The translations under genes were made by a program, and so were the position numbers. DNA of 8,078 nucleotides, from the IMG/VR virus record IMGVR_UViG_2606217173_000005; one strand, written 5' to 3'. Origin of the DNA: a virus (lineage: Duplodnaviria > Heunggongvirae > Uroviricota > Caudoviricetes). Shown piece after piece: positions 1,280 to 4,897 of this stretch; position 1 is the stretch's first letter; each line of letters starts with the position of its first letter. The notes beneath the pieces were generated by a model. That model saw only the letters and a list, made by a program, of their open reading frames with translations. It was not told the DNA's origin and did no database searches.

Positions 1280-2248
1280 ATGAGTGAAGTAACAGATTTA
1301 GTTGTTATTGAAAAAGCAAATGCAATGACTGTATTTCAGTCTGCCGACCAGATTGAAGAAATCCTTCAAAAGGTTGAACGTGAAGTTATGTCCTTTGTGC
1401 CTGATATCACAACGGCAAAGGGCAGAAAGGAGATCGCTTCTCTGGCGTATAAAGTTGCGCAGACGAAAACATATCTCGATGGTCTTGGCAAAGACCTTGT
1501 TGCTGAACTGAAGGAAATTCCAAAGCTAATTGATAACAACCGCAAGACAGTGCGCGATCGCCTTGATGAACTGAAAGCCAAGGCGCGCCAGCCTCTTACT
1601 GATTATGAGGAGGAACAGGCACGGATTAAAGCCGAAGAAGAAGCTAAGGCAGCAGCTGAAGCTCTCGCAAAGCAAATTGAGTCTGACCATGAAATAGCGA
1701 TTTTGATGGATCGCGAATTTGACCGCCAAAGAGAAGAGGCAAGACTCAAAGCGGAGCAGGAAAAGCGAGAGCATGAAGAACGCTTAAAAAGAGAAGCTGA
1801 AGAGAAAGCCAGAGCTGAAGCCGAAGCAAAGGCAAAAGCCGAAATTGAAGCAGCAGCAAGGCGAGAAGCAGAAGCTAAGGCCGCAGCGGAACGTGCAGAG
1901 CGTGAACGCATTGAAGCCGAGCGACGAGCACAGCGCGAAGCAAAAGAGGCAGCAGAACGAGCGGAAAGAGAAAAGCAGGCGGCAATTGAAGCAGAACGCC
2001 GAAAAGCACAGGAGGAGGCAGAACGAATCCGGCGCGAGGCTGAAGCAAAAGAGCAAGCCAGAATAGCAGAAGAAAAAAGAATCAAGGACGAAGAAGAGCG
2101 TAGAGCAAAGGATAAAGCTCACCGGAAAGAAGTAAATAACAAAATACTTGCTGACCTTATCAAGGTTGGCGCATCAGAAGATGTTGCTAAAAATATCATA
2201 ACAGCCATCGTAAAAGGCGAAGTATTCGCAACAAAAATAACCTACTAA
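1280..2248 (+). CDS. Hypothetical phage protein with a structured N-terminal domain, a roughly 170-aa E/R/K/A-rich helical region and a short C-terminal domain
   Basis: 322-aa ORF with a strong SD (AAGGAGG at 1269-1275) shortly upstream of the ATG; the central region is low-complexity AEAKAKAEIEAAARREAEAKAAAERAERERIEAERRAQREAKE...; no family recognised with certainty. Confidence 0.8.
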   Translation: MSEVTDLVVIEKANAMTVFQSADQIEEILQKVEREVMSFVPDITTAKGRKEIASLAYKVAQTKTYLDGLGKDLVAELKEIPKLIDNNRKTVRDRLDELKAKARQPLTDYEEEQARIKAEEEAKAAAEALAKQIESDHEIAILMDREFDRQREEARLKAEQEKREHEERLKREAEEKARAEAEAKAKAEIEAAARREAEAKAAAERAERERIEAERRAQREAKEAAERAEREKQAAIEAERRKAQEEAERIRREAEAKEQARIAEEKRIKDEEERRAKDKAHRKEVNNKILADLIKVGASEDVAKNIITAIVKGEVFATKITY

Positions 2249-2272: not shown

Positions 2273-2419
2273 ATGATTTACGCAATCGCGGGAGGCGCTC
2301 GCATGGGTGCCTTCCAACTAAATGAATCTTTACTTGAACGAATCACCCGTAAATTACGTGACGGATGGAAACAACTCATCGACGTACTTAATCAGCCAGG
2401 AGTTCCCAAAAATGGATAA
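2273..2419 (+). CDS. cIII: CIII-like inhibitor of FtsH (HflB) protease
   Basis: 48-aa ORF MIYAIAGGARMGAFQLNESLLERITRKLRDGWKQLIDVLNQPGVPKNG with RBS AAGGA upstream; the ESLLERITRKLRDGWKxLIDxLNQPGVPKNG segment matches my recollection of the lambda CIII amphipathic-helix core. Below the size cut-off of the supplied ORF track. Confidence 0.7.
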   Translation: MIYAIAGGARMGAFQLNESLLERITRKLRDGWKQLIDVLNQPGVPKNG

Positions 2420-2525
2420 AACACTTATGGCTATCCAGACTAAATTCACTATCGCCACTTTTATTGGCGATGAAAAGATGTTTCGTGAGGCCGTCGAAGC
2501 CTACAGGAAATGGAGGTCAAAATGA
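2412..2525 (+). CDS. Small ORF at the position occupied by kil in lambda (possible Kil-like host division inhibitor)
   Basis: 37-aa ORF MDKTLMAIQTKFTIATFIGDEKMFREAVEAYRKWRSK; AGGAG at 2398-2402 precedes the ATG; overlaps the cIII-like stop by 8 nt and the next ORF as ATGA. Assignment is by position and size only. Confidence 0.4.
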   Translation: MDKTLMAIQTKFTIATFIGDEKMFREAVEAYRKWRSK

Positions 2526-2710
2526 TTCCGGTAGAACTGGCGAAAACTCCAGAGTTAAGTCGATTAAAAAGAGAATATCACATTGCTGAGGCTCGTTACT
2601 GGCGTAAAGCGGGAGATAAATCAAAGAAACAACTTTGTTTATGGCAGGCACAAAGAGAGCGCATGAATGAGCGCGAGTTTCTTTCCTCCCCATCCGAATT
2701 ACCATTCTGA
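2522..2710 (+). CDS. Hypothetical small basic protein (62 aa)
   Basis: GGAGG at 2512-2516 then ATG at 2522; ATGA overlap with the upstream ORF; stops 8 nt before the Sak4-like gene. Confidence 0.5.
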   Translation: MIPVELAKTPELSRLKREYHIAEARYWRKAGDKSKKQLCLWQAQRERMNEREFLSSPSELPF

Positions 2711-2718
2711 GGCAAATT

Positions 2719-3399
2719 ATGGGAACTGCGACATTAATACTCGGTGAGTCTGGCACCGGAAAATCAACCAGCATGAGAAATATCAATCCAGAGGAAGCAA
2801 TACTTATAAAACCAATAGGCAAGCCGCTACCATTTAAATCAAAAGAATGGCTGGCATGGGATGCCAGAGCAAAAAAAGGAACCGTAGTTACCACTGACAA
2901 ATGGGACGTAATAGTTGCCGTAATTAAGCGTGCTCACGAATACGGGAAAAGAATCGTTATTGTTGATGACTTCCAGTATGTGATGAGCAATGAGTTTATG
3001 CGCCGTTCAGAAGAAAAGTCGTTTGATAAATTTACTGAGATAGGCCGCCACGCATGGGAGGTGATTAAGGCTGCACAGGATGCGCCTGATGACCTGAGAG
3101 TCTATTTTCTTGCGCACACCGAAGAAACACCTATGGGGCGCGTGAAAATGAAAACTATCGGCAAAATGCTGGACGAGAAAATCACTGTTGAAGGCATGTT
3201 TACTATAGTTCTTCGCACCCTTACCCGTGATGACCAGTTCTTTTTCACCACGAAAAACAACGGTGCAGACACTGTTAAATCCCCAATGGGAATGTTTGAT
3301 ACCAATGAGATTGATAACGATCTCTCTTTCGTCGATGCCACTGTTTGTGATTACTACGGCATCAATAATGTTCATCAAATTAAGGAAAACGCCGCATGA
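2719..3399 (+). CDS. Sak4-like RecA-core ATPase (phage single-strand annealing protein, AAA_24-type)
   Basis: 226 aa; N-terminal Walker A LILGESGTGKST; Walker B-like RIVIVDDFQ; size and motif order typical of phage Sak4; RBS GAGG upstream. Confidence 0.8.
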   Translation: MGTATLILGESGTGKSTSMRNINPEEAILIKPIGKPLPFKSKEWLAWDARAKKGTVVTTDKWDVIVAVIKRAHEYGKRIVIVDDFQYVMSNEFMRRSEEKSFDKFTEIGRHAWEVIKAAQDAPDDLRVYFLAHTEETPMGRVKMKTIGKMLDEKITVEGMFTIVLRTLTRDDQFFFTTKNNGADTVKSPMGMFDTNEIDNDLSFVDATVCDYYGINNVHQIKENAA

Positions 3400-3983
3400 G
3401 CAACGTGATTTTTACTTATAACGAAGAAGCAGCACTGACCGCAGGGCAAGGTGGTTTTATTAACGAAACTGGCGCTCATATAATTACCATTACTGAAGCA
3501 GAACTAAAGCAATCAGAAAAAGGCGCAAAATTTATTGAGTTTTCTGGCGAATCCGACGACGGACGTAAAATACAATATCTTAGCGTTTGTGTTCAGAAAA
3601 ATGACGGAACGGAAAATAAATTTGGCGCAAATGTCGTCCACGCCATGATGGGGTGTGTTGGGATTAAGCGGTTAACGCAACATATGGTTTCCGCCAGTAA
3701 ATTTGTTGCACCTGAATTTCATGGAAAGAAAATCGGGTTAGTGCTCCAGAAAGTATTAACCACAAACAAAAAGACTGGCGCAGACAGCTACCAGATGGAA
3801 ATACGCATCCCGTTTATTGCACAAACAGGTCAAACCCTTAAAGAAAAGTCGGAAGGCAAGCAACCAGAAACTATCGCCAACATGGCTGCCAACCTCAAAG
3901 ATAAAGACAATCGCTCTAAAAACGTAAGCCAGAATCATGCAGATGATTATGGTTACAGCCAGAACGATTACCCTCCTTTCTGA
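3396..3983 (+). CDS. Putative phage SSB-like partner of Sak4 with acidic/aromatic C-terminal tail
   Basis: 195 aa; ATGA start/stop overlap with the Sak4-like gene; C-terminus ...HADDYGYSQNDYPPF resembles the SSB C-terminal tip (DDDIPF-like); RBS AAGGA at 3382-3386. OB-fold not verified. Confidence 0.7.
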   Translation: MSNVIFTYNEEAALTAGQGGFINETGAHIITITEAELKQSEKGAKFIEFSGESDDGRKIQYLSVCVQKNDGTENKFGANVVHAMMGCVGIKRLTQHMVSASKFVAPEFHGKKIGLVLQKVLTTNKKTGADSYQMEIRIPFIAQTGQTLKEKSEGKQPETIANMAANLKDKDNRSKNVSQNHADDYGYSQNDYPPF

Positions 3984-4006
3984 TTACTGAAAATAAGGAT
4001 TCCATT

Positions 4007-4303
4007 ATGCCAGCGCCTCTGTATGGTGCGGACGACGCGCGCCGCTGTTCCGGCAATTCCGTATTGGAGGTGCTGGATAAATTCAGAAAAAACTACGACC
4101 TGATAATGTCGCTACCGCAGGAAACGAAAGAGGAAAAGGAATTTCGCCATTGTATCTGGCTTGCAGAGAAAAAAGAACGCGAGCGAATTTACCAGACATC
4201 AATCCGACCATTCCGCAAAGCCACATATACCCACTTCCCTGAATATATCGACCCGCGCCTGCGTAATTACCGCTCACGCTATGGCGCTATCAGTAATGAC
4301 TGA
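4007..4303 (+). CDS. Hypothetical protein (98 aa)
   Basis: RBS AAGGA at 3995-3999, ATG at 4007; codirectional in the operon; no recognisable motif. Confidence 0.7.
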
Positions 4304-4313
4304 GGAATTTACC

Positions 4314-4478
4314 ATGAGAGGACTTGCATACAATCCCAGCATTCTTCCGGCAGAAATGATTATTCGCCAACGCGTAAAGCCAATGCCATCGAGAGAGGAA
4401 TTGCTTAAGAGAAATTCTTTTCCGTCAGTGAATCAAAACAAATATCTAAATGCGATGTTGCGGAGTGGGAAGAAATGA
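4314..4478 (+). CDS. Hypothetical small protein (54 aa)
   Basis: GAGGA at 4302-4306 then ATG at 4314; ends in an ATGA overlap with the next gene; preferred over the longer 4161 start, which overlaps the preceding gene in another frame. Confidence 0.45.
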
Positions 4479-4897
4479 AACAAATGTCACTAATTGAAAT
4501 GGATGGTTTTCTGAAAGGTAAATGCATCCCACGAGATTTAAAGGTTAACGAAACAAACGCTGAATATCTGGTGCGTAAATTTGCTGAAGCGAAGGCCAAG
4601 TGCGCGGCGCTGGCAGCGGAGAATGCGGCGCTTAAACAGTCGGAGAAGGAATTTAATAACTTCTGTCGTCAGGAGTACTACGGTTGGGAGGACAACTTCA
4701 CGGAAACCCCAGCCACCGATGCTTTCCTGGCTGAAGTACGGGCGCAGGGTGTGGAGATGCTGGCAAAAAATCATCAGAGTATCGTCAATGCACTTAAGGG
4801 AGATTCTCTCTTTTCTGATGGTGAATACCGACATGCAGCTATTGTTTCCGCAGCTGTATATTTCGCTGCAGAGCTTCGCAAAGGAGGCAGCCAGTGA
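4475..4897 (+). CDS. Hypothetical protein (140 aa)
   Basis: GGAG at 4462-4465 then ATG at 4475; the stop overlaps the next gene's GTG start (GTGA). Confidence 0.7.

Follow-up and report, generated by a model that had tools for sequence, protein, structure and literature searches.

A homolog of Shigella phage Sf6 gene 33 upstream of a phage recombination module encodes two conserved end domains joined by a charged helical rod and is a candidate spacer protein

Why would a phage carry, just ahead of its recombination genes, a protein built around a long charged rod, and what could such a protein do there? The question arises from a gene in an 8,078-nucleotide stretch of viral DNA (the window, meaning the whole stretch analyzed). 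Recombineering tools are built on phage recombination modules, which also often trigger bacterial defense systems. The commonest companion gene of these modules in Proteobacteria, to whose family the present gene belongs, is nameless, has no Pfam model, and is mislabeled "TolA" in thousands of records.

The open reading frame (ORF) at positions 1280 to 2248 (+ strand) begins with ATG and encodes 322 aa plus a stop. A Shine-Dalgarno sequence, read directly in the DNA (TAAGGAGG, positions 1268 to 1275, + strand), ends 4 nt before the ATG. Over its full length of 969 nt, the gene is 98.6% identical in nucleotide sequence to Sf6 gene 33 (AAQ12223.1), and it is 97.9 to 99.0% identical to 30 phage records among the matches listed. 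The phrog_1376 profile matched it across residues 1 to 322 (E = 2.3e-109). The gene was carried by 530 of 5426 complete Escherichia coli genomes (~10%); at least 80% of its length was held in ~93% of these carriers, and nearly all E. coli copies sampled were exactly 969 nt long. Because it has a strong Shine-Dalgarno sequence and is conserved over its full length in phages and genomes, the ORF is a genuine prophage gene of the expressed type and thus not an annotation artifact, an outcome for which the original prediction had allowed. Its nucleotide identity and PHROG membership identify it as the counterpart of Sf6 gene 33. The Sf6 gp33 family is without an assigned function, and no experiment bearing on an Sf6 gp33-type protein was found in the literature searched. 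The "Gp33" of HK75, which a 2026 preprint reports to trigger the P2 OLD system, was rejected as a homolog; it is a 56-aa phrog_2123 protein encoded between kil and erf.

The rod was delimited at residues 118 to 285 (positions 1631 to 2134, + strand) from its composition, i/i+4 statistics, lack of a heptad seam, and AlphaFold2 (AF2) helix. Ala, Glu, Arg, and Lys make up 78.9% of residues 106 to 285 and 87.2% of residues 161 to 285, compared with 36% and 32% of the flanks (residues 1 to 105 and 286 to 322, respectively), which bears out the dominance of these residues predicted for residues ~110 to 280. In the core (residues 151 to 285), 53 opposite-charge i/i+4 pairs were counted, compared with 25.5 ± 3.8 in 5000 shuffled sequences, none of which reached 53. 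Like-charge i/i+4 pairs numbered 5, compared with 25.0 ± 3.9 in the shuffles, and the same test revealed no excess of i/i+3 charge pairs in these residues. AF2 returned the extended helix that had been expected, running without a break from residue 69 to residue 295, with mean pLDDT values of ≥90 in 10-residue blocks from ~110 to 240. At 0.15 nm per residue, the predicted lengths are ~25 nm for residues 118 to 285, ~20 nm for the core of the ER/K type (residues 151 to 285), and ~34 nm for the whole helix (residues 69 to 295).

The rod is not uniform. Hydrophobicity and allele alignment delineated a conserved amphipathic interruption at residues 133 to 150 (QIESDHEIAILMDREFDR; positions 1676 to 1729, + strand), which is 33% hydrophobic. 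The motif was recognizable in 19 of 20 aligned enterobacterial alleles, the exception being the 245-aa deletion allele P0165, which has lost it. The predicted rod of i/i+4 salt bridges stands as a strongly nonrandom pattern in residues 151 to 285 but is broken by this patch.

A predicted helix of such length might also belong to a coiled coil of two strands, possibly antiparallel, or to a filament, forming a KfrA-, SMC-, or Rad50-like scaffold. The short amphipathic stretches, which occur only at residues 70 to 117 and 133 to 150, are conserved and have 50% hydrophobic occupancy at heptad a/d positions, so that they could mediate oligomerization. Ala, which accounts for 26% of the rod, can allow helices to pack, and, because monomer AF2 would model any such sequence as one helix, dimers are still compatible with the model. 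However, no hydrophobic heptad seam was found along the rod. In residues 151 to 285, a/d hydrophobic occupancy equaled that of random sequence, whether Ala was left out (12.8% versus 11.6 ± 2.2%) or counted (39.5% versus 41.7 ± 3.7%). Bulky hydrophobic residues constitute only 6.7% of this core, and its very strong i/i+4 ion-pair pattern is typical of ER/K single helices. A coiled-coil scaffold is consequently improbable in our judgment. By its sequence signature and the AF2 model, the rod is probably an ER/K-type single alpha helix (SAH) that would behave as a monomer, in line with the first of the two forms, SAH or coiled coil, that had been considered for it.

The DNA encoding the rod had been described as repetitive and purine-rich. 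Its purine content is indeed high (72.4% in positions 1600 to 2110, compared with 55% over the whole window), but its repetition is weak: TRF gave two low-scoring arrays, and the direct repeats are 16 to 37 nt long with 65 to 89% identity. Two antisense ORFs (positions 1603 to 2085 and 1784 to 2122, − strand) were suspected low-complexity artifacts, and a codon shuffle control agreed. Their stop-free runs of 171 and 129 codons compare with 187 ± 45 and 139 ± 24 codons when the rod codons are shuffled, and because ~60% of shuffles reached the observed lengths, we rejected these ORFs as genes. They are products of composition, arising from the stop-poor, pyrimidine-rich complement of the rod, and their translations are Ser/Ala-rich and Phe/Cys/Leu-rich sequences of low complexity.

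Alleles in E. coli range from 245 to 333 aa and differ solely by indels in the rod. Three deletions correspond to the spacing of direct repeats on the + strand. Repeat D1 (positions 1634 to 1891; outer copies at 1634 to 1660 and 1865 to 1891, 89% identical and 231 nt apart) fits the loss of 77 aa in the 245-aa allele P0165. Repeat D4 (positions 1838 to 1994; copies at 1838 to 1853 and 1979 to 1994, 141 nt apart) fits the loss of 47 aa in the 275-aa allele P0084, and repeat D2 (positions 1871 to 1973; copies at 1871 to 1907 and 1937 to 1973, 66 nt apart) fits the loss of 22 aa in the 300-aa allele P0071, from phage HK633. From this agreement, these three alleles are evidently deletions between short direct repeats. 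The in-frame length variation expected of such DNA thus occurs, but the variants are a small minority among E. coli copies. Length was also conserved among five aligned alleles of the Enterobacter group: four were exactly 322 aa long, and one was 320 aa, with its 2-residue gap outside the core. The core rods of this group were 60 to 65% identical with zero indels, and the end domains were 86 to 95% identical between E. coli and Enterobacter group alleles. Natural mosaics retained the N-terminal domain (90% identity) with a different C-terminal domain (26% identity), or the reverse. These comparisons suggest that rod length is under constraint and that the end domains are modular, and we count both points in favor of a spacer.

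The N-terminal head (residues 1 to 117; positions 1280 to 1630, + strand) was defined by profile search, invariant residues, and AF2. It comprises two short helices (residues 12 to 20 and 22 to 37), a loop with the motif VPDxxTxKGR, and the start of the long helix. With a deep alignment, this domain was well predicted (pLDDT of 91.9; helix 46 to 129 continuous at a pLDDT of 92). Its profile retrieved 5,663 clusters at 50% identity (E ≤ 0.001), and eight residues were invariant in 62 diverse sequences (G48, R49, K63, G70, L73, R88, P105, and E110). No Pfam model matched the head. The C-terminal mini-domain (residues 281 to 322; positions 2120 to 2245, + strand) has the motif HRKxxNNxxLxxLxxxGxxxxxAKxIxxAIxKGxVxxxxIxY, and 108 of 144 family representatives had a domain of this kind (~42 to 45 aa). 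Compared with PDB sequences, its profile gave a weak, nonsignificant resemblance to RuvA domain III and UBA-like domains (E = 0.2 to 1.6), which we keep as a lead and not as a finding.

The present protein fits a three-part family architecture of N-terminal head, charged helical linker, and C-terminal domain (HRxxxN...G...AK...I.Y). Across 109 diverse members, the charged-helix stretch had a median length of 131 residues, and the i/i+4 signature had a median z of 4.6, with z > 3 in 85%. The homolog set was collected with the full-length query, a 113-aa N-domain query having given only fragments of <200 aa. A fold search in BFVD returned family members only, and atypical members contained no informative domain fusions; one SusD fusion looks chimeric. 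Judged from these shared parts, the protein belongs to a large family that no Pfam model describes.

Many records of this family are named "cell envelope biogenesis protein TolA," and the rod resembles TolA domain II in being a long helical segment with abundant Ala, Glu, and Lys, a likeness from which the database name originates. The comparison with TolA domain II made in the original prediction holds for composition and fails in every test of the TolA family. The TolA model TIGR02794 scored 11.4 bits, far below its cutoff of 59.45, and matched the low-complexity rod only. There is no hydrophobic membrane anchor (the Kyte-Doolittle mean over 19 residues peaks at 1.03, at residue 293 and not at the N terminus), and the TolA C-terminal domain (domain III) was not found. 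The context is the early-left operon of a prophage, with a cytoplasmic phage protein expected, and not the tol-pal operon. Membership in TolA (TIGR02794/PRK09510) was rejected on the score, the anchor, and the context. A TolA-like envelope protein is scarcely credible, and the name is a low-complexity artifact. The label can be corrected, as the protein is not TolA.

As originally described, the gene directly precedes cIII and the recombination genes, in the position of the early-left operon. Pfam and PHROG matches identified the co-oriented genes downstream (positions 2273 to 4303, + strand) as cIII (2273 to 2419), kil (2322/2412 to 2525), an HkaM-type orphan (2510 to 2710), a Sak4-like annealing ATPase (2719 to 3399), a DUF669-type single-stranded DNA-binding protein (SSB; 3396 to 3983), and the anti-RecBCD gene abc2 (4007 to 4303). 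On the other side, the ORF list, Pfam, and the sequence itself delineated an IS5 element (positions 1 to 1053, − strand; transposase at 1 to 981, terminal repeat at 1034 to 1049, CTAG target at 1050 to 1053). It is inserted 227 nt upstream of the gene, into a DUF2528 gene of which a remnant is left at 1035 to 1244.

The downstream module is the same as that described for HK620, in which Sak4 with its own SSB equaled the oligonucleotide-recombineering level of the four-gene module hkaM, sak4, ssb, and abc2 (PMC5928155). Because this four-gene module works without an Sf6 gp33 family gene, the family is not an obligatory cofactor of annealing. The family is widely found beside such modules. At least 65 of 81 diverse loci, which span Gamma-, Beta-, and Alphaproteobacteria and other phyla, have co-oriented ERF, RecT, DUF3799 (PDDEXK nuclease), YqaJ, or SSB genes in the 4 kb downstream, and these often overlap the family gene or lie only a few bases away from it. 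In enterobacterial lambdoid phages, cIII and kil separate the gene from the annealing protein, and the region is rich in accessory genes (ral and sieB). Near-identical alleles stand beside different annealing proteins (RecT in locus L011 and ERF in L013; RecT in L025 and ERF in L044). We used such individual counterexamples alone, as the association of N- or C-domain type with annealing-protein type across loci is confounded by phylogeny and incomplete labeling. The function, first given as unknown, is narrowed by these data to a conserved link with phage recombination modules, which as synteny amounts to guilt by association for any recombination role.

The same surroundings would suit a host takeover or anti-defense protein of the early-left operon that merely neighbors the recombination genes and binds and neutralizes a host factor, for example, a defense system sensing phage recombination intermediates. 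Enterobacterial copies are located among accessory genes (ral, sieB, and DUF2528) upstream of cIII and kil, independently of the annealing-protein type, and domains are swapped between alleles as in arms race genes. Lambdoid recombination loci have also been described as hotspots of defense triggers and inhibitors (bioRxiv 10.64898/2026.07.10.737580). Outside the enterics, however, from Pseudomonas to Alphaproteobacteria, the stop codon overlaps or nearly abuts the start of erf, recT, or a nuclease gene, which argues for a core rather than an accessory function. The N-terminal domain is very strongly conserved, unlike fast-evolving anti-defense proteins, and PADLOC, which covers defense and not anti-defense proteins, gave no match. 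We regard an anti-defense role as unlikely.

Position also raises a functional analog of Gam, which would shield the ends of linear phage DNA or block a host nuclease, RecBCD for example. In Firmicutes phages, the slot upstream of erf-ssb or sak4 is held by Mu-Gam-like, Gp157, DUF2483, or DUF1351 genes, such as the DUF1351 gene of phage phi9805 (gp48), and an analogous function has been proposed (PMC8093625); the slot is also that of lambda gam relative to bet. Homology to DUF1351, Gp157, or Mu Gam was nonetheless unsupported by Pfam scans, hhalign, and the BFVD search. The Phage_Mu_Gam, Sipho_Gp157, and DUF1351 models matched none of 109 members (E ≤ 0.01), the DUF1351 model matched none of 10 N-domains at E ≤ 10, and a single Phage_Mu_Gam match at E = 0.1 among these 10 was noise. 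In hhalign, the N-domain matched a profile of phi9805 relatives with a DUF1351 probability of 0.6%; this profile was shallow (6 sequences), which leaves very remote homology conceivable. Moreover, an Stx1a phage carries the family gene together with lambda Gam-Bet-Exo, and the gene co-occurs with the anti-RecBCD gene abc2 in this window, Sf6, and mEp043. With a rod of zero net charge and a whole-protein pI of 5.6, the protein is not a strongly acidic DNA mimic. A Gam analog is thus a rather remote prospect.

The most likely reading is that the protein serves the phage recombination module as an accessory tether or spacer, because relatives are embedded in cassettes whichever annealing protein (Erf, RecT, Sak4, or Red-beta) or PDDEXK nuclease is present, with YqaJ and SSB. 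We put its probability at roughly 45%. The Sf6 gp33-type protein would be an early, cytoplasmic dumbbell in which a helical head of ~117 residues and a C-terminal mini-domain of ~42 residues are held apart by the long charged single alpha helix. This helix would serve as a semirigid spacer whose length and charge pattern outweigh its exact sequence. The end domains may be independent binding modules, so that the protein would bridge two partners in early phage DNA metabolism, these probably being DNA or conserved host factors and not the annealing protein itself. A more far-reaching proposal, which we consider doubtful, is that the gene is the enterobacterial founding member of a very large family of universal accessories of proteobacterial phage recombination cassettes, serving any annealing protein (Erf, RecT, Sak4, Red-beta, or Rad52-like). 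Its length-tuned SAH would then be a molecular ruler between a head that binds DNA or a host factor and a C-terminal docking domain, and the family would be the Gram-negative counterpart of DUF1351, Gp157, and DUF2483. The natural series of 245- to 333-aa alleles is a ready test of an SAH spacer as a ruler in a bacterial virus, and the protein is a defined candidate accessory factor for the transfer of Erf, RecT, or Sak4 systems to new hosts.

Compared with known systems, the protein is closest to Sf6 gp33 (phrog_1376), which is the same gene in the same place between tL2 and cIII with a full-length PHROG match; nothing of substance differs, and IS5 stands upstream in the present copy. "Orf53" of Pseudomonas phage D3 is a further homolog, confirmed by tblastn. 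DUF1351 (PF07083), Sipho_Gp157 (PF05565), DUF2483, and Mu-Gam-like genes have no detectable homology to the family but share its slot immediately before erf-ssb or sak4-DUF669, and DUF1351 proteins are of similar size (~300 aa). KfrA of IncP plasmids is described as a DNA-binding repressor that forms coiled coils. It likewise combines a small end domain with a long Ala/Glu/Arg-rich helical tail and is encoded by a mobile element, but neither the present protein nor the family members matched KfrA_N. ER/K SAH domains occur in myosin VI/X, caldesmon, and INCENP. The present rod shares their composition, their i/i+4 Glu-Arg/Lys pattern without a hydrophobic seam, and their placing as a spacer between two functional domains, and it differs from them in being unusually Ala-rich, phage encoded, and interrupted by an amphipathic patch.

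The 322-aa open reading frame (ORF) at 1280 to 2248 on the plus strand was borne out as a gene, with a strong ribosome-binding site (TAAGGAGG) at 1268 to 1275, and is 98.6% identical to Sf6 gene 33 over its entire length. Among the matches listed, identity to 30 phage records was 97.9 to 99.0%; the listed phages include mEp043, mEp213, mEp234, HK544, CUS-3, IME10, and Stx1a phages. The gene is carried by 530 of 5,426 complete E. coli genomes and is not new as a sequence: database records of it date back to the Sf6 genome, and a PHROG already covers its family (phrog_1376, annotated as of unknown function) and matches it end to end. Pfam scans of the protein and its family returned no matching family. 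Homologue records carry contradictory names ("TolA," "cell envelope biogenesis protein," "coiled-coil domain-containing protein," "antitoxin," "fibrinogen binding protein," putative "tail-fiber protein," and "ribosome recycling factor"), and some split the gene in two, as in CUS-3, where the match spans 970 bases versus 969; all of the names look like low-complexity annotation artifacts. The TolA reading was refuted, and the name is an artifact: model TIGR02794 scored 11.4 bits against a cutoff of 59.45, the match was confined to the low-complexity rod, and the protein has no hydrophobic anchor. A 99% identical copy of the gene, with erf and ssb after it, lies on a 3.9-kb contig of an "Actinomycetes" metagenome-assembled genome (JAFADF010000066.1); the contig most likely comes from an enterobacterial phage and was mis-binned.

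The protein consists of two end domains joined by a charged rod. Ala, Glu, Arg, and Lys make up 79% of residues 106 to 285 and 87% of residues 161 to 285, a composition of the kind the original prediction had proposed, versus 32 to 36% of the end domains. The i/i+4 salt-bridge pattern also proposed was recovered: residues 151 to 285 hold 53 opposite-charge pairs versus 25.5 ± 3.8 in 5,000 shuffles, none of which gave 53, and 5 like-charge pairs versus 25. This is the sequence signature of a single alpha helix (SAH). A rival explanation is a coiled-coil scaffold; bulky hydrophobic residues form only 6.7% of this core, and the best heptad register had 12.8% hydrophobic a/d positions versus 11.6 ± 2.2% after shuffling, with no excess when Ala was scored as hydrophobic. 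AlphaFold2 modeled a single helix over residues 69 to 295, with mean pLDDT values of at least 90 per 10-residue block from about residue 110 to 240. A conserved amphipathic patch at residues 133 to 150 breaks the rod. At the DNA level, positions 1600 to 2110 are purine rich (72%), as anticipated, but repetitive only loosely. The two antisense ORFs suspected of being low-complexity artifacts were both reproduced by codon-shuffled rods from composition alone.

The expectation that this DNA would vary in length in frame was correct. E. coli alleles of 245, 275, 290, 296, 300, 304, 306, 309, and 333 aa were seen beside the 322-aa form, differing from it by in-frame indels within the rod only. Direct repeats in the rod DNA, identified independently of the allele comparison, have spacings of 231 nt (outer copies of repeat D1), 66 nt (D2), and 141 nt (D4), equal to the deletions of 77, 22, and 47 aa in the 245-aa, 300-aa (phage HK633), and 275-aa alleles, respectively. 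The length variants arise by deletion across short direct repeats. The canonical length is dominant: nearly all of 60 evenly sampled E. coli matches are exactly 969 nt, and 496 of the 530 carrying genomes keep at least 80% of the gene. Among five aligned Enterobacter, Cronobacter, Citrobacter, and Salmonella alleles, four encode 322 aa and one encodes 320 aa; their core rods are only 60 to 65% identical, with zero indels, and their N- and C-domains are 92 to 93% and 86 to 95% identical, respectively. Rod length and charge pattern are retained despite sequence drift, as expected for a spacer.

The same plan extends across the family. An N-domain profile matched 5,663 clusters (50% identity) at E values of ≤0.001 and 5,098 at ≤1e-10. 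Of 144 new representatives from the best 150 profile matches, 108 are full-length proteins of 279 to 445 aa with a head, a charged linker, and a C-terminal domain ending in I-x-Y. The i/i+4 signature was significant (z > 3) in 85% of 109 aligned members, with a median charged-helix stretch of 131 residues. The N-domain, modeled from a deep alignment (pLDDT 91.9), packs two short helices against the start of the long helix; its most conserved stretch is VPDxxTxKGRKEIASxAxKVxxxKTxLDxxGK. Fold searches returned only family members or generic helices, and a C-domain profile search gave only nonsignificant matches, to RuvA domain III and UBA-like domains. Some alleles keep the N-domain but carry an unrelated C-domain (26% identity), and others keep the rod and C-domain but carry a divergent N-domain (60%); because mosaics swap either end, the ends act as separable modules. 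Three such natural mosaics (P0180, P0182, and P0183 in alignment A1) exchange an N- or C-domain across the low-complexity rod, which may be a recombination joint for domain shuffling. A 222-aa database protein (P0187) fuses the family N-domain to C-terminal sequence of the 140-aa ORF that the window carries at 4475 to 4897, implying a deletion from the rod to that gene in some prophage.

The window represents, on the plus strand, the early-left (pL) operon of an E. coli prophage of the lambdoid, P22/Sf6-like type. An IS5 copy (1 to 1049, transposase on the minus strand; terminal repeat CTTGTTCGCACCTTCC at 1034 to 1049, CTAG target at 1050 to 1053) cuts a DUF2528 (Sf6 gp34-like) gene, leaving a remnant (1035 to 1244; profile positions 44 to 104 only) 5' of the studied ORF. 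Because it sits between pL/N and the remaining operon, IS5 probably disturbs early-left transcription in this prophage. Downstream lie cIII (2273 to 2419), a kil homologue (2322 to 2525; phrog_2461, E = 2.8e-41), a 66-aa HkaM-type orphan (2510 to 2710; phrog_1723), a Sak4-like annealing ATPase (2719 to 3399), a DUF669-type single-stranded DNA-binding protein (SSB; 3396 to 3983), abc2 (4007 to 4303), and Ead/Ea22; the recombination genes are the HK620-type module of PMC5928155. The long kil frame overlaps cIII by 98 nt in a different frame; a short form from Met31 (2412), which fits the 47-aa Kil family phrog_3924, reduces the overlap to 8 nt. The HkaM-type orphan occupies the "arf" slot immediately 5' of Sak4, and its phrog_1723 label "recombinase" is unsupported. 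In HK75, that slot holds a 56-aa "Gp33" (phrog_2123), a trigger of P2 OLD defense according to a 2026 preprint; it is unrelated to the orphan and to the Sf6 gene 33 type.

All functional evidence on the family comes from its genomic context. We clustered neighboring ORFs at 81 loci (the window and 80 genome loci from Gamma-, Beta-, and Alphaproteobacteria, Planctomycetes, and Desulfuromonas) and identified the clusters by Pfam. Co-oriented downstream genes encode ERF, RecT, DUF3799 (PDDEXK), YqaJ exonuclease, and SSB. A gene of this set was present within 4 kb at 65 or more of the 81 loci, its start often overlapping the stop of the family gene or following by a few bases. The surroundings are of prophage type, with an S24 repressor upstream and an integrase-like gene downstream. 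In enterobacterial phages, the gene occurs with several cassettes: Sak4, SSB, and abc2 in the window; Erf, SSB, and abc2 in Sf6; a Bet-annotated protein and abc2 in mEp043; Gam-Bet-Exo in an Stx1a phage; and a Rad52-family protein and SSB in one E. coli genome. Near-identical alleles also adjoin differing annealing proteins. Given this variation, the annealing protein is unlikely to be the partner. Rival readings are an anti-defense or host-takeover protein and a Gam-like end protector; the gene's presence alongside Gam and Abc2 speaks against simple RecBCD inhibition.

The best-supported reading is a cytoplasmic dumbbell in which a presumably monomeric SAH would hold two independent binding modules, each with its putative partner, about 20 to 35 nm apart, serving the phage module for recombination and early DNA metabolism as an accessory tether or spacer. 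Architecture, sequence signature, length conservation, and synteny are established here, and monomeric state, partners, and any effect on recombination are inferred. In the literature searched, we found neither statistical support for an SAH in members of this family, nor the repeat-mediated allele series, nor the family as a regular companion of proteobacterial phage recombination cassettes. The analysis describes a family without a Pfam model as a regular companion of these cassettes, independent of the annealing protein. SAH spacers are already a known kind of element. In Firmicutes phages, Mu-Gam-like, Gp157, DUF2483, or DUF1351 genes fill the slot of the family, as in phage phi9805 (DUF1351-Sak4-SSB). 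A search for homology to DUF1351 found none, so that relation is positional; an analogous function has been proposed for those Firmicutes genes (PMC8093625).
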